DNA from: Blastocatellia bacterium
Lineage (GTDB): Bacteria; Acidobacteriota; Blastocatellia; UBA7656
NCBI GenBank assembly: GCA_035258805.1
Contig: DATFWY010000099.1
Location: 5,357-69,356 of the forward strand
Reading direction: 5' to 3'
Length of the DNA: 64,000 bases
Under the pieces are notes generated by a model. It was given only the letters and a program-made list of their open reading frames with translations. It did not search any database and was not told where the DNA came from. Shown here piece after piece: positions 4,534 through 59,930 of this stretch. Position 1 is the stretch's first letter. Each line of letters opens with the position of its first letter. A program made the position numbers and the translations under genes.

Positions 4534-7206
4534 GTGCAAATAGGAAGATTCCTGTACATGATTCCGCTTCGACTTAGATCGCTGTTACGTCGAGCACAAG
4601 TCGAGCGGGAATTGGACGAAGAACTTCAATATCATATTCAGCGACAAATTGAAGAGAATCTTGCGAAAGGACTTCCGGCACAACAAGCGCGTCTTGCAGC
4701 ACTGCAAGCAATGAATGGAATTGAACAGCAGAAGGAGAAGTGCCGCGACACGAGACGAGTGCATCTCATCGAAGACCTGGTTCAGGATTTACGCTACGGT
4801 CTTCGAATGCTGGCTCGCAATCCGGTTTTCACCGCAATAGCCGTGGTTACCCTGGCTTTGGGCATTGGCGCCAACACGGCTATTTTTTCGGTTGTCAACG
4901 AATTGCTTTTGCGGCCGCTTCCCTTTCGAAATGCAGATCGTCTGGTGATGCTGTGGGAGGTTAATCCCAGCGGTCGTCATCAGAATACGACATCGCGAGC
5001 AAATTTCCGAAGCTGGCGTGAACAGAGTACCGCCTTCGAGGAAATGGCGGCCTTTTCTGATCTACGACTAAATCTAACCGGTGATGGAGAACCTGAAGAG
5101 GTCTCGGTTCAAATGGCTACGCCAGAACTGTTTCAAGTCCTCGGTGTTAATGCATTGCTTGGGCGTACGCTGACACTTGATGACGGACGCGCAAAATCAG
5201 CCGGAGTGGTAATCAGCTACGGGCTCTGGCAACGTCGCTTCGGCGGAGATCCGCAGATCCTGGGCAGACGAGCCATACTCAACGGAACTCCCTTCGATGT
5301 AGTCGGAGTTATGCCGGCGCATTTTCAGTGGCATATCCGAAGCAGATCCGGCACCGGCAAGCCTGCGGAAATGTGGATCGTCCTACCGATGCCGAAGGAG
5401 GGGCCGGCGCTGCTGGGTCGATTTCTTTCAGTAGCAGCGACTCTCAAACCTGGCGTCTCGCTTGAACAGGCAACTTCTGAATTGAAAGTGATAGAGGCGC
5501 GGATTGAGCAAGAGGATCCGCAATATAATAAAGGCTGGGGTGTTGAGATACTGCCGGTGCGCGAACAGTTCGTTGGCAAGGTCCGAACGGGGTTAATGGT
5601 GCTTCTTGGCGCTGTTGGCTTCGTGCTGCTCATAGCCTGCGCGAATGTCGCTAATCTAATGTTGTCACGCGCCGCAGCGCGTCAGAAGGAAATGGCGCTA
5701 CGGGCGGCGCTTGGCGCTTCCCGCCTGCGAGTCATTCGTCAGCTACTAACTGAAAGTCTGTTGCTTGCCTTGTTAGGCGCCTGTCTAGGAGTTGGACTCG
5801 CACTGTGGGGCATTCGTGTCTTGGTGGCCGTAAGTCCGCGCGACCTTATCAATATTCAGGGTACCGGGTTAAATCTCCCGGTTCTGGCCTGGACACTGAC
5901 TCTTTCGCTCGCAACTGGAGTGTTTTTCGGTTTAGTTCCTGCTCTGGAATCATCGAGGCTTAACCTGAGCGACGCACTTAAAGAAGGCGGAAAAACCGAC
6001 GCCGGACAAGGAGCTCGCAGCAGCCGGCTTCGGAATATCCTGGTCGTCGCGGAAGTCGCATTGGCTGTGGTACTGCTCGTCAGCGCAGGGTTGCTGGTTA
6101 AGAGTTTTGCGCGTCTGCGAAACATTGATACCGGTTTCGATACAGACAACGTGCTTACGATGGTCGTGCCTCTGGCAGGTGCCAGATACCAGACTGATCC
6201 GCAAGTCATTGGTTTCTTCCGTCGTGCAACAGAACGTATACGCTCGTTTCCGGGTGTCACTGCAGTAGGTGCGGTGAATTATTTGCCTCTTTACGGAGGG
6301 TTGGGCTGTTCGACCGGTTTTAGCATAGAAGGGGAACCCCAACCACCTCCGGGTGAAGGTCCTTCAACCAACGTACGAGTTACCGACGAAGGCTACTTTG
6401 CTGCAATGGGAATTCCTTTCTTGCGAGGCCGGAACTTCAACGACGCGGAATGCAACGAGGCAAAGCATGTCATCATCGTTAGCGAATTGTTTGCGCGACA
6501 GTACTTCCCTAACGAGGATCCTTTGGGTAAGCGCATCAGCGTTGATATGTTCATAAACCCGAACCCCCCGACCGAGATCATTGGGATAGTCGGCGACGTA
6601 AGGTATGACAGTCTTACAGATCAGGCGGAACCGACGGTTTACTATCCGATGCCGGAACTCACCTATAGCGTTATGACACTTGCGATCCACACCTCAGGCA
6701 ATCCTGCTGTCATCGCTCCCTCAGTTCGCGGAGTATTGCGAGAGACGGATGCGGATCAGCCTGTCTCCGATGTAAGAACCATGGATCAGGTGATGGGCGA
6801 GACGTTGAGCCGGGCGCGCTTCAACACGCTTCTGCTGGGACTATTCGCAGGAATGGCGATGCTGCTGGCAGCGGTAGGGATTTTTGGTGTGATGAATTAC
6901 GCCGTAACTTTAAGGACTCGTGAAATCGGTATCAAAATGGCGCTCGGTGCACGTCCCGGCCAGGTTCTGTTATTCATAATGAGACAGGGACTGACGTTGA
7001 CTCTATTGGGAATTGGGCTCGGCGTGGCTGGGTCGCTGGCATTGACACGTCTGATGTCAGGGCTGCTGTTCGGAGTGAAAGCGACGGACCCGGTCACCTT
7101 TGTGAGCATCGTTGTGCTCCTAACACTGGTGTCGGCAATCGCATGTTATCTTCCAGCACGGCGGGCGATGAAGGTGGACCCGCTGGTCGCGCTTCGCTAT
7201 GAGTAG
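4534..7206 (+). CDS. ABC transporter permease, FtsX/MacB-like duplicated 'ADOP' family
   Basis: 890 aa with two FtsX-like four-TM modules plus MacB-type periplasmic domains. N-terminus LRSLLRRAQVERELDEELQYH is typical of PadR-linked ADOP permeases. The track uses GTG at 4534, and ATG at 4558 (MIPLRLRSLL) is an alternative start. Confidence 0.9.
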   Translation: MQIGRFLYMIPLRLRSLLRRAQVERELDEELQYHIQRQIEENLAKGLPAQQARLAALQAMNGIEQQKEKCRDTRRVHLIEDLVQDLRYGLRMLARNPVFTAIAVVTLALGIGANTAIFSVVNELLLRPLPFRNADRLVMLWEVNPSGRHQNTTSRANFRSWREQSTAFEEMAAFSDLRLNLTGDGEPEEVSVQMATPELFQVLGVNALLGRTLTLDDGRAKSAGVVISYGLWQRRFGGDPQILGRRAILNGTPFDVVGVMPAHFQWHIRSRSGTGKPAEMWIVLPMPKEGPALLGRFLSVAATLKPGVSLEQATSELKVIEARIEQEDPQYNKGWGVEILPVREQFVGKVRTGLMVLLGAVGFVLLIACANVANLMLSRAAARQKEMALRAALGASRLRVIRQLLTESLLLALLGACLGVGLALWGIRVLVAVSPRDLINIQGTGLNLPVLAWTLTLSLATGVFFGLVPALESSRLNLSDALKEGGKTDAGQGARSSRLRNILVVAEVALAVVLLVSAGLLVKSFARLRNIDTGFDTDNVLTMVVPLAGARYQTDPQVIGFFRRATERIRSFPGVTAVGAVNYLPLYGGLGCSTGFSIEGEPQPPPGEGPSTNVRVTDEGYFAAMGIPFLRGRNFNDAECNEAKHVIIVSELFARQYFPNEDPLGKRISVDMFINPNPPTEIIGIVGDVRYDSLTDQAEPTVYYPMPELTYSVMTLAIHTSGNPAVIAPSVRGVLRETDADQPVSDVRTMDQVMGETLSRARFNTLLLGLFAGMAMLLAAVGIFGVMNYAVTLRTREIGIKMALGARPGQVLLFIMRQGLTLTLLGIGLGVAGSLALTRLMSGLLFGVKATDPVTFVSIVVLLTLVSAIACYLPARRAMKVDPLVALRYE

Positions 7207-13535: not shown

Positions 13536-13579
13536 GACGAACTGTTCACGAACAAGCCACACGTAGTAACGAATGCTCA

Positions 13580-13616
13580 CGTAGTAACGAATGAATTCGT
13601 TACTACGTGAGCGTGA
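13580..13616. terminator. Near-perfect 17-bp-stem hairpin between convergent genes, a likely bidirectional terminator. It belongs to a dispersed repeat family.
   Basis: ctcacgtagtaacgaat-ga-attcgttactacgtgag is a perfect inverted repeat. It is preceded by a direct half-copy, cacgtagtaacgaatg at 13561. The core AATTCGTTACTACGTGA recurs at 48141 and 57137. Confidence 0.7.
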
Positions 13617-47909: not shown

Positions 47910-48271
47910 GTCCTTTTCATGTCGGGAGAGTGCAGAAAAGGAAGGTCCCTCCCGGCCACGCAAGGTTACGCCACATATGAGCAGATCGCAATCGCACTGA
48001 TGATGCTTATAGTTTCTGTCTATATCCCTCATCGTGCCTGCCATTTCGGTTCATACACACCTAGTTAGTCTTGATGCGGTAGCCTGCAGGCGAGAGGGCC
48101 AAGCTGTTTTGTACGGCATGACGAGCGAGAACGAATAAATTCGTTACTACGTGACAGCACACGGCACTCGAATTTACCTGTCTTTAATCCTACAATGTCG
48201 CCGTCAAAGCCGGACAGTGCGGGCACAAGCAATAAAACTTATTCCGAGCTTGAGGACTAAACAGAACTACG

Positions 48272-50665: not shown

Positions 50666-52405
50666 TCACGCTTCATACAAATCCACCGCCGTCTGTCCCC
50701 TCGCAAAACGCTGCGCAGTCTGTGCCGCTGACTGACTACCCGCTCGCTTTCTCGCATCAGTCGCCCAACGGCTCAAACCGATCAACAGCTGGTTACGCGC
50801 CGGATGGCCCTCACACAATTTCCACTCGTCAAAAACAAACCTCAATGTGTGCACAAGATTCCAGCCGTTGTCGTCTTTGAGAATCGATTGGCCCATCTCC
50901 GACAACAGGCGATTGCCTGAATACCCGGAGTTCAAATACTCGCGTGTGTGCCTGCCAACTTCGCGTACCTGGACCGTCTCAATTGAATCAAGAACGGTCC
51001 GCAAAGCCGTGTCTTCATCTGGCGCATCCGATTTTGTGGCCGCTAGCGGATCGGTCAGAGAACGCGGAGTAATGTTGAGCCATCGATCGCTGAAAAATTG
51101 CCACGCAGCGTGATAGAGAGCCTTCGCGCCAATCTTGAACCCGCCGTACCGATATGCGGTTCGAACTGATGACGAGACTATCAACTCCTGACTAAGGCTG
51201 CCCCATCCCGGGTTGAGGTTCACTGGTGTCCGCGCCATTCGATCAGCGGCCAATAGAACCAACGTTGTTACAATCCGCTCAATCCCAACGCCTGCCTTGA
51301 GAGCATTCGAAATCGCATTGAACGTCTGGCTCAAATCCCCACTTACCAGACCTCTGGCGATGGCGTCCTCATCGTACGCAGTTCCGTCAGCGGCGGGAGC
51401 ATCGTCCAGCTCCTGGAGGAACGCGTCGATCGGTTCAAACATCTTCATCGCAGCTAGGCGGAGTTCTTCCGGAGCATCGCGACCTCTCCCGAGGATCTTT
51501 GCAGCAAGGTTGCAGACCAGTTCTTCCGAATTATCCCAGCCGAATTCCTCCAGCAATTCTGCCAGGAATTCGAAAAGCGGAAGGTTTTGAGTATGGCCTA
51601 AGAAAAAGGATTCGAGCGCACACTCATAGAGCAGCGGAAAAATCTCAGCATCGTGTCCACCAAGACGTCGAGCGGTGATCAAACATTTCTCGATCCCCTC
51701 CGGCGCCTTATCCGCAGTGAATACATGAATCCAATTTGCAAGCTTCTCCCAGGTAGTCGGAGGCGGCAACGGCTCAACTGCCGGGCGGTCTCCTGCAGTA
51801 CCGGAAGCACCGGTCGCCGCAATCATCAACGGAATCAGCCGGTCGTCAGGCGCGTAGTGACGCGCAACCTTGACCCCGTTAACCATCATCGCCAGCTCGC
51901 GCCCCGCTTCGTTTGGGCCACGTCCAGTGGCAACGTGTCTGCCGAGATGCCTAACAACAAGCTTCAGCGTGTCCTTCTCCGACACTCCTTTGGCCAGCAT
52001 GATGGCGATGGCTTTAGACAGCGTCCAGTTATCTGCGCTTAAAAGGCCTTCTTTTAGCAGGAGGAAATGCGCATCTTTGCGCCTGGATCCGCCGCTGCTC
52101 ACATCGATATAGATCGAGCCATCGCAAACCTCAACAGGAAATGTGTCGAGATCATCGCAGCCTCCGGTGAAGCAGCCGCCGCCTTTCATGTCGTAGCTCC
52201 ATCCGTGCCAGTCACAAGTAAGAACGCCGTTGCGGACTCGTCCACGTGTCAATGGATATCCCATATGCGGGCACTGGTTATCTGTGGCATAGATGTCGCC
52301 CTTGTGTTGAAAAAGCGCGATGCTGCGGCCGTCGACTTTGACGGCTTTTGGAGTGCCTTCGGGCACATCTTTGATTTCCGCTACCCTAACAAAATTATTC
52401 GACAT
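50666..52405 (-). CDS. Rieske [2Fe-2S] domain protein with large C-terminal helical domain of unknown function (paralogue 1)
   Basis: CPHMGYPLTRG...(17)...CDWHGWSYD is the CxH...CxxH Rieske motif. About 450 aa of unassigned all-alpha sequence follows. About 50% identical to the adjacent gene. Confidence 0.75.
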   Translation of the reverse strand: MSNNFVRVAEIKDVPEGTPKAVKVDGRSIALFQHKGDIYATDNQCPHMGYPLTRGRVRNGVLTCDWHGWSYDMKGGGCFTGGCDDLDTFPVEVCDGSIYIDVSSGGSRRKDAHFLLLKEGLLSADNWTLSKAIAIMLAKGVSEKDTLKLVVRHLGRHVATGRGPNEAGRELAMMVNGVKVARHYAPDDRLIPLMIAATGASGTAGDRPAVEPLPPPTTWEKLANWIHVFTADKAPEGIEKCLITARRLGGHDAEIFPLLYECALESFFLGHTQNLPLFEFLAELLEEFGWDNSEELVCNLAAKILGRGRDAPEELRLAAMKMFEPIDAFLQELDDAPAADGTAYDEDAIARGLVSGDLSQTFNAISNALKAGVGIERIVTTLVLLAADRMARTPVNLNPGWGSLSQELIVSSSVRTAYRYGGFKIGAKALYHAAWQFFSDRWLNITPRSLTDPLAATKSDAPDEDTALRTVLDSIETVQVREVGRHTREYLNSGYSGNRLLSEMGQSILKDDNGWNLVHTLRFVFDEWKLCEGHPARNQLLIGLSRWATDARKRAGSQSAAQTAQRFARGQTAVDLYEA

Positions 52406-52432: not shown

Positions 52433-54184
52433 CTAATCTTCAAACGCCTCCACCGTTGTTCTTCCCTCCGCAAAGCGCATCGCGGTGTTAGTCGCAGATC
52501 CGCTGTTCTTGTTCGTTCGAATATCAGTAGCGTAACGCGCGAGCCCCACAAGCAACTGGTACCGCGCAGGATGAACGCTCTCTGACTTACTTAACAGCTC
52601 CCACTCCTCAAACACCGTGCGCAGCGTCGGTAAAACCTGGATGTTGGTGTCATCCCACAGCATCGATCGTCCAATTTCGTGCGCCAGGCGATCACCTGAG
52701 TATCCGGCATTCAGATAACCTAAGACCTGCGCGCCGATCTCCTGAACGTTAAGGGACGCGATTGATTTGAGAATTGTTCGCACCCCAGTATCTTCGTCGG
52801 CTACTTCGAGCCTGGTCGCATCGAGCGGTTCGGACAAAGGCCGAAGCGGTATATTAAGCCAGCGATCGGAGAACATCTGCCAGGCCGCCTGGAATGTCGC
52901 TTTTGCCGCCACCAAAACTCCGCCGTTTCGCTTAGCGGTACGCAGTGACGCTGCAAGGTTGAGTTCCATCGTCAGTGGTCCCCACCCCGCATCGACGTTC
53001 ACCGGCGTGCGAGCCATCCGATCCGCAGCAAGAAGTACAAAGCTAGTGATCAAGCGATCCAAACTCACGCCTTCTTTGAGAGCACCTGTAACAGCCTCAA
53101 ACGATTTCTGAATGTTTCCGCTAAGCAGCGCGCGAACCAAACCATCTTCGTCGTGATCGGGCTGGCCCGATGAGTAATCGCTGGACTCGATCGCCGGAAC
53201 AGAAGCCGCCATCAATTGAACGGCGTCTCGAAGAAAGCGTTCGGGCTCGCCTCGGCGACGGCCAATAAGTTTTGCGCCGAGATTGAAGACTACTTCGGAC
53301 GATCGCTCCCAGCCGAAGCTCTCGACGGCTTCAGCCAGGTAACCGAGCGCGAGCAGGTTATCTCCGTAACCCAGAAAGTGCGGTTCTACCGCACATTCGT
53401 ATAGCAATCGAAGAATCTTGTCTTGATAATGCAGATTGTGCGCTGTGAAGAGGCAGCGCTCTATCCTGCCCGACTGACCATCGTGAGAAAACATCCGCGT
53501 CCATTTATCTATGCTTTCCCAGGACACCGATCCAGGCATGGGCACCACGTTGAGGCGTTCAGCGGATTTCCCTGCAACCGAGCAGGCAGCCGTCGCCAAA
53601 ACCATCAGCCGATCGGCGTCTTGATAACGGCGCCCGACCTTGAGGCCGTTGATCAATCTTGAAAGCTCCGAGCCTCCTTCCGCATCTTCATCGCTTGCAA
53701 TGCGTCTGCCTAGGTGTCGGAGGATCATTTGCACGATCTCTTCCTCAGGAACATTGCCTCTGAGCAGCAGAGCGATGGCTTTTGAAATAGTCCAACGATC
53801 TTCGCTCAGCAGCCCCTCCCAGAGCAGGCGAAGGTGTTCGTCTCGGCGTTTGTACTGGAGATCACCGACATTAATCCAGACAGCACCATCGCGTACGTCC
53901 ACCGGAAAAATCTGAAGATCGTCACATTCCTTGTTGAAGCATCCGCCGCCTTCTAAATCGAAACTCCGTCCGTGCCAGTCGCAGGTGAGGATGCCATGAC
54001 GAATGGCGCCTCGGGTCAACGGGTAACCCATGTGAGGGCACTGGTTGTCGGTGGCGTGAATCCTGCCATCGACGTTGAAAAGCGCAATCGTGCGTCCCTG
54101 GTTGAGTTTTACTGCTTTAGCTTCACCTGGAGGAATCTCGCTCAGGCCTGCGACGCGTATCCATTCCGAGATAGGTTTGACCAC
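52433..54184 (-). CDS. Rieske [2Fe-2S] domain protein with large C-terminal helical domain of unknown function (paralogue 2)
   Basis: CPHMGYPLTRG...CDWHGRSFD Rieske motif, collinear with 50666..52405. Shared blocks include LLAADRMARTPVN and FSDRWLNI. Confidence 0.75.
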   Translation of the reverse strand: MVKPISEWIRVAGLSEIPPGEAKAVKLNQGRTIALFNVDGRIHATDNQCPHMGYPLTRGAIRHGILTCDWHGRSFDLEGGGCFNKECDDLQIFPVDVRDGAVWINVGDLQYKRRDEHLRLLWEGLLSEDRWTISKAIALLLRGNVPEEEIVQMILRHLGRRIASDEDAEGGSELSRLINGLKVGRRYQDADRLMVLATAACSVAGKSAERLNVVPMPGSVSWESIDKWTRMFSHDGQSGRIERCLFTAHNLHYQDKILRLLYECAVEPHFLGYGDNLLALGYLAEAVESFGWERSSEVVFNLGAKLIGRRRGEPERFLRDAVQLMAASVPAIESSDYSSGQPDHDEDGLVRALLSGNIQKSFEAVTGALKEGVSLDRLITSFVLLAADRMARTPVNVDAGWGPLTMELNLAASLRTAKRNGGVLVAAKATFQAAWQMFSDRWLNIPLRPLSEPLDATRLEVADEDTGVRTILKSIASLNVQEIGAQVLGYLNAGYSGDRLAHEIGRSMLWDDTNIQVLPTLRTVFEEWELLSKSESVHPARYQLLVGLARYATDIRTNKNSGSATNTAMRFAEGRTTVEAFED

Positions 54185-54348
54185 GGTTGTTACTCCTGAT
54201 CGGCTGTGGCGAATCTGCGATCGATGTCATCGCGCGGGCACACCAGACCAAGGTAGTGCCGAATGGGTTCGGAATTCAAATGATATTTGCGCAGGGCAAC
54301 CTCTTCTTACAGCTTGCATCTGAATGGCCCAGTAAGGAGGAGGTACAA

Positions 54349-56370
54349 ATGAAACGGAATTGGCGGTACGTCTGTCAGCTTCTCGTTGCAATCGCAACGA
54401 TCTCATTTCTCAGCTCTGCGAAGAGTCAGTCTGCCGGCGCCCAACAGAATCAACCTCCTGTTCAAGCGCTAACAGAAAAAGACAAAACTCTCTCACCCTA
54501 TTTCTTTGTTCAAGGGGATCCCAGCGTTGATCAATTGCCTCTGAAAGATACTAACGTGCAGATCGATGTTTCGGGAGTGATCGCGGATGTCGAGGTTCGG
54601 CAAACATACCGAAACGAGGGCTCGCGTCCGATTAACGCCCGCTATGTCTTCCCCGCCTCTACACGTGCCGCCGTTTATTCGATGCGGATGCGCATCGGCG
54701 ACCAGGTTGTAGTAGCCAAAATCAAAGAGCGAGAAAAAGCGCAGCAGGAATTCGAAAAAGCCAAACAAGAAGGCAAGAGCGCATCATTGCTCGAACAGAA
54801 CAGACCAAACGTGTTCTCGATGAGTCTCGCCAATATAATGCCCGGCGACCAGGTTGAAATAGAACTTCGTTATACCGAACTGCTGATACCCACGGATGGG
54901 ATTTATGAAGTGGTCTTTCCTACAGTTGTTGGGCCCCGCTATTCTTCGCAACCTGAATCCCCGGCGGCCCAAACAGATCAGTGGGTTAAAAATCCTTATC
55001 TCCGCGAGGGACAGAAGCCAACCAGTGCGTTACATATTTCCGCCAGGGTTTCCGCGGGAATTCCTATTCAGGAGTTGACCTGTCCATCGCATTCGATCGT
55101 TCCCCAATGGCAGGGCCCGACGATTGCGCAGCTGCAAACGGATGATAAGGATTCGTCGCAGGGAAACCGTGACTTTATTTTGAGATATCGCCTGACTGGC
55201 GATCAGATCGCGTCAGGGTTGATTCTTTACCAGGGTCAAGATGAAAACTTCTTTCTCTACATGGCACAACCGCCGCGACGAGTTGCGAGCACAGAGATAC
55301 CCACAAGAGAGTATATCTTTGTCGTCGACGTGTCAGGTTCGATGGAAGGGTTCCCCTTGAATACGTGTAAACGGTTACTGCGTGACCTGATCGGGCAACT
55401 GCGACCTACCGATTTGTTCAACGTGGTCTTGTTCGCCGGAGACTCCACCGTTCTGTCGCCAAAATCGCTGTATGCGAACCAGGAAAACATCTCGAGCGCA
55501 ATCCGATTACTCGAACAACAGCGAGGCAGCGGAGGAACCGAGTTGCTCGCCGCGGTAAAACAAGCAATGAGCATCCCACCTCATTCCAGCGTGTCGCGCA
55601 GTGTGGTGCTTGTCACCGATGGCTATATCTCGGGTGAACAGGGAGTCTTTGACTACATTCACGAGAATCTGAATGAATGCAATGTCTTCGCGTTTGGGAT
55701 CGGAACTGCAGTAAACCGCTATCTCATCGAGGGTGTTGCAAAAGCGGGATTGGGAGAACCTTTCATCGTCACAAGCGAGGCTGAGGCTCCTGCAATAGCG
55801 GCTAAGTTTCAGGAATACATCCAGACGCCGGTGTTGACGGACATTAACGTCAAAACCAGCGGCTTCGATGCTTATGACGTGAACCCCGCCCACACCCCTG
55901 ATCTGTTCGCTGAGCGGCCAATAATTGTTTTCGGCAAGTGGCGCGGTCAGGCTACAGGTACGTTCGAGTTGAAAGGAAAGAACGGAAATGGAGATTACGT
56001 AACTCGTGTCGATGTCAACGGTGTTCAACCAGACGATGCCAATAGAGCGCTGCGTGATCTTTGGGCCCGATCGCAGATTGCTGAGCTCTCAGACTACGGC
56101 GCAAGCCATGTCGAACCCGAGCGAGTCAAAACAATCACAAACCTCGGGCTGAAATACAATCTGCTGACGCAATACACATCATTCATTGCCGTGCTTGAAA
56201 GTGTCACAAATACAGGCAGGCCTGCGCAGGATGTGAATCAACCTCTTCCGCTTCCCCTCGGAGTGACTGATATGGCGGTAGGAAGTGAACCTGAGTTGAT
56301 CTGGCTGATAAGCGCTTCCCTCGTTCTAGCGTTGATTATGTTCCTTCGCTACCGGCGGCGTTTTGTATGA
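54349..56370 (+). CDS. VIT domain + von Willebrand factor A domain protein with C-terminal PEP-CTERM-like sorting signal
   Basis: Signal peptide MKRNWRYVCQLLVAIATISFLSSA. VIT block DVSGVIADVEVRQTYRNEG. vWA MIDAS FVVDVSGSM. C-terminus ...GSEPELIWLISASLVLALIMFLRYRRRFV, which is a Pro/Glu motif, a TM helix and then an Arg cluster. The track ORF from 54187 carries a 54-aa upstream extension that is not accepted. Confidence 0.8.
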   Translation: MKRNWRYVCQLLVAIATISFLSSAKSQSAGAQQNQPPVQALTEKDKTLSPYFFVQGDPSVDQLPLKDTNVQIDVSGVIADVEVRQTYRNEGSRPINARYVFPASTRAAVYSMRMRIGDQVVVAKIKEREKAQQEFEKAKQEGKSASLLEQNRPNVFSMSLANIMPGDQVEIELRYTELLIPTDGIYEVVFPTVVGPRYSSQPESPAAQTDQWVKNPYLREGQKPTSALHISARVSAGIPIQELTCPSHSIVPQWQGPTIAQLQTDDKDSSQGNRDFILRYRLTGDQIASGLILYQGQDENFFLYMAQPPRRVASTEIPTREYIFVVDVSGSMEGFPLNTCKRLLRDLIGQLRPTDLFNVVLFAGDSTVLSPKSLYANQENISSAIRLLEQQRGSGGTELLAAVKQAMSIPPHSSVSRSVVLVTDGYISGEQGVFDYIHENLNECNVFAFGIGTAVNRYLIEGVAKAGLGEPFIVTSEAEAPAIAAKFQEYIQTPVLTDINVKTSGFDAYDVNPAHTPDLFAERPIIVFGKWRGQATGTFELKGKNGNGDYVTRVDVNGVQPDDANRALRDLWARSQIAELSDYGASHVEPERVKTITNLGLKYNLLTQYTSFIAVLESVTNTGRPAQDVNQPLPLPLGVTDMAVGSEPELIWLISASLVLALIMFLRYRRRFV

Positions 56371-57155
56371 AACTGAAAATGAGTGCGCGCTGGGTCGCAC
56401 AGAGTGCGGCGGTGCTGATCTGCGTTTTCGCTTTGAAGCAATATTATTCAACCGCGAGCGCAGATCAGCTTAAATGGATCCTGACGCCTACGACCGCATG
56501 CGTTGAGCTGTTCAGCGGCGAGTCGTTCCGGTTTGAATCTCATGCGGGTTACATAAGCGCGGATCATCGATTCCTGATCGCGTCGTCATGTGCGGGAGTT
56601 AATTTTCTTATCACCGCTTTTCTGATGCTTTCAGCAAGGAGGCTGCTGTTTGAGCCGCCGACCAGCGCGACCTGGTCATTCATCCCGGTCTCATTATTCG
56701 CAGCCTATGTTGTAACTCTGATTGCAAACACGACTCGGATCTTGATCGCGCTGAAACTCCAGGGAATTTCTGCGATTGATTCGCTGGATTCGAACCAGCT
56801 ACATCGATTAGAGGGCATCTTCATCTATTTCCTGTTTCTGACATTGTTGTTCCTGGTGAGCGAACGGAACAGTTCAGATGGACTCTACAGTGTGTTGCGA
56901 CGGTGCTTCCTTCCGCTGCTCGTATATTATTCGACGATGTTGGGTATACCGTTGTTAAACGGGTCGTACCGAGCAGGAAGGAATTTCTGGGAGTACGCTA
57001 CAGTTGTTTTTCTTGTGCCGGTGCTTGTTCTTTGCGGGCTTTGCGGGTGTTTGAGTGCTTACGCGCAGCTCACACCGCAATTCAGGCTTCCCGCAAAATC
57101 GCAAAGAACCGCAAAGCTCGCAAGGGAAGAAACGAATAAATTCGTTACTACGTGA
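56367..57155 (+). CDS. Exosortase/archaeosortase family protein (small)
   Basis: 262 aa polytopic membrane protein. SSCAGVNF resembles the catalytic ACSGxRS block and IANTTRILI resembles the NxxR(I/V) block. ATGA start overlaps the stop of the VIT-vWA gene by 4 bp. Its 3' end is formed by the AACGAATAAATTCGTTACTACGTGA repeat. Confidence 0.6.
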   Translation: MKLKMSARWVAQSAAVLICVFALKQYYSTASADQLKWILTPTTACVELFSGESFRFESHAGYISADHRFLIASSCAGVNFLITAFLMLSARRLLFEPPTSATWSFIPVSLFAAYVVTLIANTTRILIALKLQGISAIDSLDSNQLHRLEGIFIYFLFLTLLFLVSERNSSDGLYSVLRRCFLPLLVYYSTMLGIPLLNGSYRAGRNFWEYATVVFLVPVLVLCGLCGCLSAYAQLTPQFRLPAKSQRTAKLAREETNKFVTT

Positions 57156-57188
57156 GGAGTTCACTCCTTTAGACTAATTCCAACTCCA

Positions 57189-58373
57189 TCAGACTAATTC
57201 CAACACCTTTCGGACTATGTCGCGCGCGGCGTGTGGCCGTCCAAGCGCGTACGCATTTCTTTTCATAGCAGCAAAACGCGCAGGGTCGGCCAGAAGTCGA
57301 TCAATTTTGTATGCCAGCGTCGGCATATTGTTGCAGCGAATTGCCGCTCCCGCTTCCAACAGGTGATCCGAATTACGTTCTTCTTGTCCCGGGATAGGAT
57401 TGGTAATCACCAGGACCAGGCCTTTTACCAACGCCTCCGAGGTTGTGAGACCGCCGGCTTTACCCACGATAAGATCGGACGCCGCCATGTATTCATCCAT
57501 TTCATTGGTGTATCCGACTGCCTTAATGTTTATTCTTCCTTCGCTGCTGATGGTTGTTGCCAGGTCGGAGACGCGTTTCTTCAGATTCTCATTGCGTCCG
57601 CAGATCGCGACGATCTGTGCATTGTGTTTCATACCCATTAGAGCGGCTAAGATCGGCTGAAACGCGCCCACACCAAATCCTCCAGCCGACAATAGAATAG
57701 TCGTGCGATCAGTATCGAGACCGTGTTTACGTCGCATTTCGTGCTTGTGTTTGGGCTGTGAGAAAACCGGATCGATCGGAATTCCACTGACCGTGATCTT
57801 GCTCTCAGGAATCGACAGAGCTTCAAGATAAGCACGCGCTTCGTCAACCGCCACAAAATACTGCTCGTAATGATGGCAGAGCCACATTGCGTGAACATCG
57901 AAGTCCGTTACTATTATTGCCTGGCGACTGCTAATGCGCTCCTTGGCTTTGGGCCACGAAACAATCTCCGCCGGCAGAAAGTGCGTGCAGATGATGACGT
58001 CAGGCCTGTAGTCTCGCAATAACTTGACGAACTTACGGGTGTTTAGTTTATCGAGAGCCAAACGTCGTCGTTCATTCTCCCAGGGCTTATCCAACCGGTC
58101 ATAAAACCATCCCGACACCTCGGGCATTTTGTTTACAACATCGATGTAGGCCTTTGAATAGAGATGTCGGAAAATTCGGTTGGTGAACTCGAGGGTGTCA
58201 ACGTGACGAACCTCACAGGCAGCGGCGGCTTCATTTTCTGACTCATGAAATGCTTTTTCTATGGCTTGAGCAGCTCGGACGTGACCCGCGCCGGATGTTG
58301 CCGATAGCAATAGGACTTTCTTAAGCATTGCGATCAAATTCTTGGAGTGCAGAGAGCTCGAAGGATATATCAT
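57189..58373 (-). CDS. Monoglycosyldiacylglycerol synthase-like glycosyltransferase (GT28, MGDG_synth N-domain)
   Basis: LLLSATSGAGHVRAAQAIEKA is the N-terminus of MGDG/UgtP-type synthases. The C-terminal GT28 region ends LIVGKAGGLTTSEAL. Start probably MLKKVLLL at 58328. Confidence 0.7.
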   Translation of the reverse strand: MIYPSSSLHSKNLIAMLKKVLLLSATSGAGHVRAAQAIEKAFHESENEAAAACEVRHVDTLEFTNRIFRHLYSKAYIDVVNKMPEVSGWFYDRLDKPWENERRRLALDKLNTRKFVKLLRDYRPDVIICTHFLPAEIVSWPKAKERISSRQAIIVTDFDVHAMWLCHHYEQYFVAVDEARAYLEALSIPESKITVSGIPIDPVFSQPKHKHEMRRKHGLDTDRTTILLSAGGFGVGAFQPILAALMGMKHNAQIVAICGRNENLKKRVSDLATTISSEGRINIKAVGYTNEMDEYMAASDLIVGKAGGLTTSEALVKGLVLVITNPIPGQEERNSDHLLEAGAAIRCNNMPTLAYKIDRLLADPARFAAMKRNAYALGRPHAARDIVRKVLELV

Positions 58374-58539: not shown

Positions 58540-59409
58540 ATGCGGATTGGCTTTATTGGGTTGGGCATCATGGGAAGACCAATGGCACTGAACCTGATAA
58601 AAGCGGGCTTTTCGCTAATGGTCTACAACCGCACTGCCGCGAAGTGCAAACCTCTGGTCGACGCGGGCGCAGTCGGTGTCAACTCGCCGCGTGAAGTCGC
58701 CGCATCCTCAGATGTCGTTATTACAATCGTCTCGGATACTCCTGACGTCGAATCGGTTCTGTTCGGTAATGATGGGATTTCTTCCGGCTTGAAAGAAGGA
58801 GAGATCGTCATCGATATGAGCTCTATTTCTCCCTCGGCCACTCAACGATACGCGGCGCGATTGCGGGAACAGAGAGTCGAGATGCTCGATGCTCCAGTTA
58901 CTGGAGGCGAGAAAGGCGCAATCGAAGGCACGCTTGCGATTATGGTTGGAGGCAGCCGAGAGATATTCGACAAAGGTCTTCCAATTCTTCAGGCAATGGG
59001 CGGAACGATTGTGTATACCGGCGAGAGTGGAACCGGACAGAGAACGAAGCTGGTCAACCAGATTCTGTGCGCACAGCATATCGTGGCAATGTCCGACGGA
59101 TTGCGTTTCGCTAGAGAATCGGGGCTCGATTTGGAGACGACACTGAAGGTTGTTTCTGGGGGAGCGGCCGGGTCATGGATGTTGACCAATATGGCGCCCA
59201 GGATTTTGCGCGACGACTTTGCACCCGGCTTCACGATCAAGCTTCAGCATAAAGATTTGAGGCTAGTGCGTGAGGCACTGCAGGAAATGGAAGGAAGATA
59301 CCCTGCGACGGAGCTTTCGTATTCGTTGTTCAGCGAAGCAGTAACGAGCGGTCTCGGCGAACTAGGCACTCAGGGACTCATAAAACTGTACGAAGGCAGA
59401 AAGCAGTAG
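58540..59409 (+). CDS. NAD(P)-dependent 3-hydroxyisobutyrate / tartronate semialdehyde reductase family oxidoreductase
   Basis: [24 protein letters not shown] is the beta-hydroxyacid dehydrogenase Rossmann motif. The catalytic-Lys region is conserved. The track start at 58519 adds 7 aa. Confidence 0.85.
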
Positions 59410-59535
59410 GCAGAAAGCAGAAGGCGGCGGTGCTTTCCTACTGCCGACTGCGTTCTGCCGACTGCCTACTGCCGACTGCCTCCTGCCTCCTACGTTCTGC
59501 CGACTGCCTTCTGCCTACTGCCTCCTGCCTTCTGC
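59399..59535. repeat. GCAGTAGGCAG / CTGCCGACTGCCT direct and inverted repeat cluster between the dehydrogenase and PadR genes (terminator-like)
   Basis: gcagaaagcagtaggcagaaagcagaaggcgg is followed by cctactgccgactgcgttctgccgactgcctactgccgactgcctcctgcc. The related motif aagcaagtaggcagaaagtagctggcagtaggcag lies immediately after the stop codon at 11597..11632. Confidence 0.7.
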
Positions 59536-59579
59536 ATTCCTCCTTGCCATCCCTAACTCGCTTCTGGCATAGTTTCCCT

Positions 59580-59930
59580 ATGCCAGTTCGACGAGAGATC
59601 AGTCAGCGAGACGAAATTCCTCCCGGGACCCTCTACATGCTCATCCTGAAGACTCTCTCGCGCAGCGGCGAACTCCACGGTTACGAAATCGCCAACTCCA
59701 TTCAACAAATGTCCGGCGACGTGCTTCAGGTCGAAGAAGGATCACTCTACCCCGCCCTGCAACGAATGCTCCTCAAGGGCTGGGTCCGGGCCGAATGGGG
59801 CGTCACACCCGAAAATCGGCGCGCTCGCTACTATCGACTGACCACACTCGGGCGAAAAGAGCTTGAACTCGAGGTCTCCCAATTTCAACGCGTATTCGAA
59901 GCCATACAGCAGGTTCTGCGTCCCGCATAG
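59580..59930 (+). CDS. PadR family transcriptional regulator
   Basis: HGYEIANSIQQMSGDVLQVEEGSLYPALQRMLLKGWVRAEWG...RRARYYRLT. The track ORF from 59430 is an extension encoded by the GCAGTAGGCAG repeat, and ATG 59580 is preferred. Confidence 0.8.
   Translation: MPVRREISQRDEIPPGTLYMLILKTLSRSGELHGYEIANSIQQMSGDVLQVEEGSLYPALQRMLLKGWVRAEWGVTPENRRARYYRLTTLGRKELELEVSQFQRVFEAIQQVLRPA

Follow-up and report, generated by a model that had tools for sequence, protein, structure and literature searches.

We describe a pair of overlapping genes in a 64,000-nucleotide (nt) stretch of DNA, referred to here as the window, from a Blastocatellia bacterium of the Acidobacteriota (GenBank assembly GCA_035258805.1, contig DATFWY010000099.1, positions 5,357 to 69,356 of the forward strand). 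The upstream gene (54349..56370) encodes a 673-amino-acid (aa), presumably secreted protein with a VIT domain, a vWA domain, and a C-terminal sorting tag; we call this protein the cargo. The downstream gene (56367..57155) encodes a 262-aa polytopic membrane protein, exosortase K (XrtK). Both genes, and all features within them, lie on the plus strand, and the cargo stop codon and the enzyme start codon are joined in an ATGA overlap at 56367..56370. A preliminary description of this DNA, made from the letters alone, had noted the overlap and the 262-aa polytopic product, both of which we recover, and had suggested that the two genes form a dedicated pair of sorting enzyme and substrate. We discuss the cargo, the enzyme, the tag, and the pairing of the two genes across genomes, and then weigh what the pair may do.

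The cargo open reading frame (ORF) starts at the ATG at 54349 and ends with the stop codon at 56368-56370. Some JGI gene calls adopt a longer, 727-aa form that would initiate at a TTG at 54187; GenBank and most members of the protein's 90% cluster have the 673-aa form. We favor the ATG because a Shine-Dalgarno-like sequence, AAGGAGGAGG, read from the sequence at 54334..54343, precedes it by 5 nt. The N-terminus of the protein, MKRNWRYVCQLLVAIATISFLSSAKSQSAGA, looks like a Sec signal peptide spanning aa 1 to ~31 (54349..54441): judged by eye, K2, R3, and R6 make up a basic n-region, the core (CQLLVAIATISFL) is hydrophobic, and small residues occur at SSA/AGA.

The mature part of the cargo carries two recognizable domains. 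The VIT domain occupies aa 65-175 (54541..54873) and matches Pfam PF08487 over its full length (125.5 bits, E 1.4e-36, model positions 1-111 of 111). The vWA domain occupies aa 323-479 (55315..55785), is matched by PF00092 (VWA), PF13519 (VWA_2), and PF13768 (VWA_3), and holds a complete metal ion-dependent adhesion site (MIDAS) motif made up of D327-x-S329-x-S331, T397, and D424. In this manner, Pfam and motif reading bear out the VIT domain and the vWA domain with its MIDAS that the preliminary description had placed in this frame, and the N-terminus agrees with the signal peptide that it had noted. Sequence searches of the PDB with the VIT-vWA region find PARP4 (6.7e-33) and ITIH4 (1e-18); PARP4 and the eukaryotic inter-alpha-trypsin inhibitor (ITIH) heavy chains share the homologous VIT and vWA core and have no transmembrane (TM) tag. 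The wider cargo family is large, with 22,165 representatives at E <= 1e-3. GenBank holds an identical protein, HKA18643.1, from a Blastocatellia metagenome-assembled genome (MAG), under the name "VIT domain-containing protein".

The identity of the enzyme is clear. Its best match is the exosortase K model TIGR04287, at 125.6 bits (E 1.3e-36) against a cut-off of 55, with aa 14-166 aligned to positions 7-156 of the 163-position model. It also passes the exosortase/archaeosortase signature TIGR04178 (26.4 bits, cut-off 23) and Pfam Exosortase_EpsH, PF09721 (28.7 bits, cut-off 25.7), while it stays far under the cut-offs of the XrtA, EpsH, and XrtN models of NCBIfam. The identical GenBank entry, HKA18644.1, lies next to the cargo entry on a 72-kb MAG contig and is named "exosortase K [Blastocatellia bacterium]". 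Of the 1,762 relatives returned by a homolog search with the enzyme, many are placed in Blastocatellia and already bear the name exosortase K in JGI or NCBI annotation. The window enzyme is therefore exosortase K, a subfamily that has already been catalogued, and this very gene has already been annotated as such. The suggestion that the gene belongs to one of the less characterized Xrt subfamilies holds, with the refinement that XrtK is not a new subfamily.

A polytopic protein of this size might instead belong to another membrane protease family, such as the CAAX/Rce1-like proteases or the rhomboids, and resemble exosortases superficially. We found nothing in favor of this and give it next to no credence. 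No CAAX protease or other membrane family appears among the NCBIfam and Pfam matches of the 262-aa protein, and its homologs are annotated as exosortase K by both NCBI and JGI. A CAAX/Rce1-like or rhomboid identity was ruled out on the ground that the significant NCBIfam and Pfam matches are to exosortase models alone (XrtK, the signature, XrtA, and EpsH).

The residues expected of an exosortase active site are conserved throughout. We aligned 24 homologs of the enzyme (51-78% identity). Cys75 (codon 56589..56591, within SSCAGVNF), the predicted catalytic nucleophile, is invariant in this alignment and kept in distant XrtK sequences. Arg124 (codon 56736..56738, within IANTTRI), the predicted catalytic arginine, is invariant together with N121 and T122, and distant XrtK sequences keep its equivalent within N[TGA][LFA]RI. 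His146 and Arg147 (codons 56802..56807, within LHRLEG), the former being the predicted third catalytic residue, are both invariant; the His146 equivalent is kept in all distant XrtK sequences and is followed there by R or T. The Cys and Arg blocks had been singled out beforehand as exosortase-like, a view that the invariance of C75 and R124 sustains. The invariant C75, R124, and H146 of XrtK agree with the Cys/Arg/His catalytic triad put forward for the superfamily of exosortases and archaeosortases (Haft 2023 preprint, doi 10.1101/2023.06.07.544157).

Beyond the TIGR04287 match, which ends at aa 166, the enzyme continues into a conserved two-helix C-terminal extension (~aa 178-235, 56898..57071). 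Eleven of its positions are invariant in the alignment: P183, L184, Y187, Y188, P195, G199, G204, F207, W208, E209, and P218. Acidobacteriota, Firmicutes, and Desulfobacterales forms have this extension; the Myxococcota forms, at 173-180 aa, lack it. Past residue ~235, neither the length nor the sequence of the C-terminus is conserved. Hydropathy and the distribution of Lys and Arg fit a six-TM protein with both termini inside and with C75, R124, and H146 disposed toward the outer face. An alignment-based AlphaFold model of XrtK is of moderate confidence (pLDDT 75.6, pTM 0.69). Searching the PDB with the XrtK sequence gave no match, and a Foldseek search of the PDB with the AlphaFold model gave nothing meaningful (best E 0.97), which leaves the superfamily, by sequence and by fold, without an experimental structure in the PDB copy searched.

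The second component of a sorting system is a tag on the substrate, and the window cargo has one with the usual tripartite layout at its extreme C-terminus, complementing the signal-peptide-like N-terminus. The signature G645-S-E-P-E649 (56281..56295) is followed by a 17-residue TM helix, LIWLISASLVLALIMFL, at aa 650-666 (L650-L666; 56296..56346), and then by a basic cluster, R667-Y-R-R-R671, with F-V after it (aa 667-673; 56347..56367), which would form a cytoplasmic stop-transfer end. The signature abuts the helix with no spacer, a feature described for tags that are cut by membrane-embedded enzymes.

We aligned 60 tails, the window's and those of 59 related loci, anchored on the motif, and added four divergent loci for a total of 64. 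Counting from the glutamate, the 60 tails have Gly at -2 in 59, Ser at -1 in 52 (Thr in 3, Asp in 3, Asn in 1, and Pro in 1), Glu at 0 and Pro at +1 in all 60, Glu at +2 in 54, Leu at +3 in 48, Trp at +5 in 53, and Leu at +6 in 56, giving the consensus G-S-E-P-E-L-x-W-L. In 50 of the 60, the first basic residue follows E-P at a distance of 18 residues, and an R/K cluster is kept in all tails. The four divergent loci read YSEPSD, GSEPGS, GSEPHL, and GSEPTG, all with S-E-P. Across the full set, E-P is present in 64/64 tails, preceded by Ser in 56, by Thr, Asp, or Asn in 7, and by Pro in 1. That single proline comes from the sole Desulfobacterales locus among the 59, whose tail reads V-P-E-P, the canonical PEP form.

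The relationship of this tag to PEP-CTERM is visible in the wider cargo family, many members of which share the linker "PLPLPxGVSxLAVG" and, after it, an x-P-E-P motif, a helix, and a basic cluster. The occurrence of x-P-E-P after the same linker indicates that the window motif is a homolog of the PEP-CTERM motif in which Ser stands in place of the first Pro. Read against these sequences, S-E-P aligns with P-E-P, and "EPE", the form in which the motif had been noted, is a register shift. Thus, the view of the tail as a non-canonical PEP-CTERM-like signal stands for the order of motif, helix, and Arg cluster, and its register is amended: the window tail lacks Pro-Glu-Pro and has Ser-Glu-Pro in its place.

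Profile searches do not detect the tag. The PEP-CTERM model TIGR02595 (cut-off 16 bits) has no match at E <= 10 to the window tail, whether isolated or within the whole protein, and none of the NCBIfam sorting-signal models matches the tail at E <= 10. Among the related tails, the best PEP-CTERM score is 12.8 bits, below threshold, for a Lachnospiraceae locus (L057), and a single tail has a sub-threshold MYXO-CTERM match that we take as chance. The resemblance to PEP-CTERM and related signals that the preliminary description had seen is, accordingly, one that these models do not register. There may be a curated signal model, "MSEP-CTERM", with an accession number beside that of XrtK and an association with it; no such model matched the tail. 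Since no model detects it, the tag is overlooked by automated annotation, and the GenBank name of the cargo refers only to the VIT domain.

The tie between the enzyme and the tagged cargo is seen most clearly in their genomic pairing. We scanned one genome per species and obtained 60 loci with a relative of the enzyme, mainly from Blastocatellia and Pyrinomonadaceae and also from Myxococcota, Lachnospiraceae, and Desulfobacterales; the enzymes of the distant loci pass the XrtK cut-off at 99-137 bits. In 59 of these loci, a VIT-vWA homolog (49-81% identity) lies directly upstream on the same strand. The 60th cannot be judged, as its contig begins within the exosortase gene. The ATGA overlap of the window recurs in 28/59 related loci, and the gap between the genes is at most 25 nt in 37/59. 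A second homolog search, started from a Myxococcota form, returned members labeled Deltaproteobacteria, Desulfobacterales, Eubacteriales, and Gastranaerophilales; four divergent members were examined on their contigs, and each is preceded directly by a VIT-vWA gene. Together, XrtK is accompanied by an upstream VIT-vWA gene in 63/63 testable loci from Acidobacteriota, Myxococcota, Desulfobacterota, Firmicutes, and Gastranaerophilales. Pairing of this regularity, with the TIGR04287 and TIGR04178 scores of the enzyme, upholds the proposal of a dedicated exosortase and substrate.

The pair also stands alone. None of its neighbors in the window (genes for Rieske proteins, a glycosyltransferase resembling monogalactosyldiacylglycerol (MGDG) synthase, a dehydrogenase, a PadR-family regulator, and MacB/FtsX proteins) is conserved beside it elsewhere, and clustering of all flanking ORFs recovered only the two genes and their antisense shadow ORFs, with no third component. 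Strict pairing and the lack of a third conserved gene indicate a self-contained cassette that travels as a unit from one genomic context to another. Each cassette appears to have one substrate. The 64-kb window holds one tagged ORF, and a regular-expression scan of 66 loci (661 kb in total, the related loci being 6-12 kb each) found exactly one tagged ORF in each of 63. The three loci outside this count are L036, which is truncated, and L058 and L062, whose tags are off-pattern and were read directly. A single tagged protein in the window is what a one-to-one system should show, and it does not, therefore, refute the pair.

We conclude that the two genes form a dedicated one-enzyme/one-substrate XrtK sorting cassette, a reading that we hold at a probability of roughly 85%. 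The cassette is of a known kind, its enzyme family is curated and its gene annotated; it is real and strikingly consistent. The domain composition, the family membership, the invariant residues, the strict pairing, and the conservation of the tag are observed here; the proposed mechanism takes its topology, cleavage and cleavage site, acceptor, and final location by analogy from archaeosortase A and the general exosortase model. The VIT-vWA protein would be exported via Sec by its N-terminal signal peptide and held in the cytoplasmic membrane by the C-terminal helix, the Arg cluster facing the cytoplasm. XrtK would act as a small polytopic membrane cysteine protease or transpeptidase, with Cys75, Arg124, and His146 predicted at the outer face. 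It would recognize the G-S-E-P-E-L-x-W-L motif abutting the helix; Cys75 would attack, and the helix and the basic tail would be removed. The acyl-enzyme could then be resolved by water, releasing the protein, or by an acceptor in the envelope, anchoring the new C-terminus. In either case, the VIT/vWA ectodomain, with its intact MIDAS, may be displayed outside the cell for metal-dependent binding. An E-P that is invariant while the helix drifts, together with catalytic-type residues that are invariant across phyla, is the pattern expected of a cleavage signature read by the neighboring enzyme.

That same pattern bears on an alternative in which the two genes are linked in function other than as enzyme and substrate: the polytopic protein would assist the VIT-vWA protein in the membrane, as a partner or chaperone, and the helix at the C-terminus of the latter would be a permanent anchor. 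The alternative draws on the comparative nature of all the evidence for processing and on the failure of the tag to match the PEP-CTERM hidden Markov model. It would leave unexplained, however, why Cys, Arg, and His at catalytic-type positions do not vary across phyla, and why E-P beside the helix is kept in 64/64 tails when the helix itself drifts, which marks a cleavage signature and not a simple anchor. We consider this alternative very improbable.

A nearer rival accepts the cleavage and disputes what follows it: XrtK may clip the anchor and shed the VIT-vWA protein to the periplasm or the medium, with nothing attached to its new C-terminus. No gene for acceptor synthesis or for glycosyl or lipid transfer is conserved beside the pair, XrtK is far smaller than XrtA-type enzymes and has no extra domains, and the literature leaves unsettled whether exosortases and archaeosortases are one-step transpeptidases. 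Nevertheless, in archaeosortase A, the only characterized homolog, cleavage is tied to the attachment of a lipid; true anchoring of this cargo family is found elsewhere, for example by LPXTG and sortase; and release could be had without a dedicated enzyme, from a signal-anchored or soluble cargo. Release alone is thus a tentative possibility, one that we judge clearly the less likely outcome and still the most credible of the alternatives.

The opposite extension is that the S-E-P tag is a distinct class of sorting signal and not a drifted PEP-CTERM, and that XrtK might couple the C-terminus of the VIT-vWA protein covalently to a polymer or lipid of the envelope. We regard this combination as unlikely, somewhat more so than simple release. 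If true, covalent attachment would echo the ITIH heavy chains, which are homologous VIT-vWA proteins. In these, a C-terminal propeptide is removed and an ester bond to a glycan is formed, a parallel that is suggestive only. In addition, the two-gene cassette would then be the simplest system for finding what exosortases attach their substrates to.

Several points weigh against a dedicated XrtK cassette as set out above. Given that no signal model matches the tail, the link between tag and enzyme is drawn from co-occurrence only. The counts of tagged proteins are those of the 64-kb window and the related loci. The topology of XrtK is inferred from hydropathy alone, no solved structure was found in the PDB to confirm the geometry of the active site, and no publication or experiment on XrtK was found in the literature searched, from which it follows that the family is apparently known only through its model and the annotations derived from that model. 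The distribution is awkward as well. The XrtK and VIT-vWA cassette, with an S-E-P tail, occurs in three Lachnospiraceae MAGs (L057-L059), a Eubacteriales MAG (L062), and a MAG of the Gastranaerophilales, within the Melainabacteria (L061). Exosortases are commonly viewed as Gram-negative enzymes related to the outer membrane, and XrtK in the four Firmicutes MAGs (L057-L059 and L062) fits that view poorly; the MAGs may be misbinned. Were the Firmicutes assignments correct, these cells would be using an exosortase in the absence of an outer membrane.

Comparison with known systems places the cassette among, and apart from, several relatives. The closest is exosortase K itself as modeled by TIGR04287: the window enzyme passes the same cut-off, keeps the Cys/Arg/His positions, and carries the name in GenBank. 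The model, however, has only ~163 positions, and forms like that of the window add the two-helix extension. The classical XrtA/XrtB and PEP-CTERM system, also known as the EpsH system (Haft et al. 2006, PMC1569441), shares the enzyme superfamily, the tripartite tag, the E-P, and a motif that abuts the helix. It is, by contrast, a many-to-one system, with often at least 20 targets per genome, an enzyme of about eight TM segments, exopolysaccharide loci, and a P-E-P motif. The window cassette is one-to-one, with a smaller enzyme, an S-E-P motif that fails TIGR02595, and no exopolysaccharide genes conserved nearby. Archaeosortase A (ArtA) with PGF-CTERM in Haloferax volcanii is a further relative, where a homologous enzyme with the same proposed catalytic residues removes a C-terminal helix; unlike XrtK, ArtA is archaeal, has many substrates, and reads a PGF motif. 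Its cleavage is coupled to lipid attachment, which XrtK may or may not share.

Other systems share the cargo and differ in the enzyme. In marine proteobacteria, the dedicated sortase TIGR03784 and its target TIGR03788 form a two-gene dedicated cassette for the same cargo family, but the target has an LPXTG tail and the enzyme has a sortase fold unrelated to exosortases. Against TIGR03788, the window cargo scores 411.3 bits, short of the equivalog cut-off of 551.65. Its aa 67-641 align to model positions 2-594 of 629, and the alignment ends where the LPXTG tail would begin; the cargo has no LPXTG, and its neighbor is XrtK and not a sortase. Rhombosortase and its GlyGly-CTERM VIT/vWA proteins likewise combine the same cargo family, a tripartite tag, and, in dedicated systems, adjacent genes for enzyme and target (Haft & Varghese 2011, PMC3237569), dedicated systems being defined there as one enzyme and one adjacent target. 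Rhombosortase is, unlike XrtK, a rhomboid serine protease that reads a Gly-Gly motif (PMC3237569). The same study recorded how the tails of the VIT/vWA family vary by species: GlyGly-CTERM in some, LPXTG with an adjoining dedicated Gram-negative sortase in others, and PEP-CTERM in Verrucomicrobium. The XrtK cassette thus adds a fourth example of one cargo family passed between sorting tags, which are served by enzymes of at least three unrelated kinds (sortase, rhombosortase, and exosortase). Service by several unrelated enzymes suggests that these proteins depend on C-terminal processing as an integral part of their function.

Most exosortase systems have dozens of substrates and large polysaccharide loci. 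To our knowledge, nobody has yet shown where exosortases cut and what, if anything, they attach. An XrtK enzyme with a single cargo and a well-defined G-S-E-P-E-L-x-W-L motif offers a convenient minimal system for reconstitution and mutagenesis. Going slightly beyond what is catalogued, our analysis supplies an explicit consensus for the cognate tag, which no NCBIfam signal model detects, the conserved two-helix extension of XrtK outside the curated model, and the finding that MAGs of Firmicutes and Gastranaerophilales carry the cassette.

The C-terminal additions of the nearest cargo relatives (proteins P0121-P0270; 43-56% identity across the VIT-vWA core) are very diverse. They include TonB-C-like ends (...VSYPFVF) and PEP-type tags, and some of these proteins reach ~1,500-1,700 aa with an aromatic last residue like that of outer-membrane beta-barrels. 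The VIT-vWA core seems to be a module brought to the envelope by many routes. At three of the surveyed loci, L004 (~4964-4986), L013 (~5786), and L030 (~4584-4739), the match between query and cargo gene is spread over two or three frames, which points to frameshifts, due either to pseudogenes or to assembly errors, in cassettes that are otherwise intact.

The 3' end of the XrtK gene is formed by a dispersed repeat, as the preliminary description had stated. An exact 17-nt copy of AATTCGTTACTACGTGA (57139..57155) provides the codons of the final FVTT and the stop. In all, AATTCGTTACTACGTGA occurs five times in the window, as three exact copies and two near ones, where 0.02 would be expected by chance. 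The complete palindrome, TCACGTAGTAACGAAT-G-AATTCGTTACTACGTGA, which resembles repetitive extragenic palindromes and has AATTCGTTACTACGTGA as its right arm, lies at 13577-13610, and an additional half copy lies at 13559-13575. Truncated forms (GAACGAATAAATTCGTTACTACGTGA) occur at 48130-48154 and 57130-57161, where the left arm, within 48130-48154 and 57130-57155, has only 7 nt. All three sites are at gene ends or intergenic. In two relatives with XrtK proteins only 75-78% identical (L065 and L066), GGAAGAAACGAATAAA(T/G)TCGTTACTACGTGAGGAGT is found almost unchanged at the same position, which indicates that the repeat is inherited and better conserved than the neighboring coding sequence. As XrtK is not conserved past residue ~235, the repeat-supplied stop has no obvious consequence for the enzyme. 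Predicted RNA folding around the 3' repeat is no more stable than that of shuffled sequence (z -0.09) and lends no support to a strong intrinsic terminator there.

A second repeat follows closely. A 20-nt tandem duplication, ACTCCATCAGACTAATTCCA, is present in 2.1 copies at 57163-57204. It runs across the stop codon of the convergent gene (57189..58373, minus strand) for the MGDG-synthase-like glycosyltransferase, and the last codons and stop of this gene recur immediately downstream of it. In the relative L066, the 20-nt ACTCCATCAGACTAATTCCA unit occurs three times. On the other side of the cassette, two adjacent paralogs of ~580 aa are encoded on the minus strand at 50666-52405 and 52433-54184, each with an N-terminal Rieske [2Fe-2S] domain followed by ~480 residues that have no Pfam match; they are not conserved beside the XrtK cassette in other genomes. 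Further along, tandem arrays lie between the dehydrogenase and PadR-family genes, one with a 7/14-nt unit at 59392-59425 and another with a 7/14/42-nt unit at 59437-59535, the latter consisting of about 14 CCTACTG-like copies. The mechanically called PadR ORF (59430..59930) reads through this second array as a repeated peptide, and its Pfam PadR match begins at aa 72, which suggests that the true start of the gene is probably downstream.

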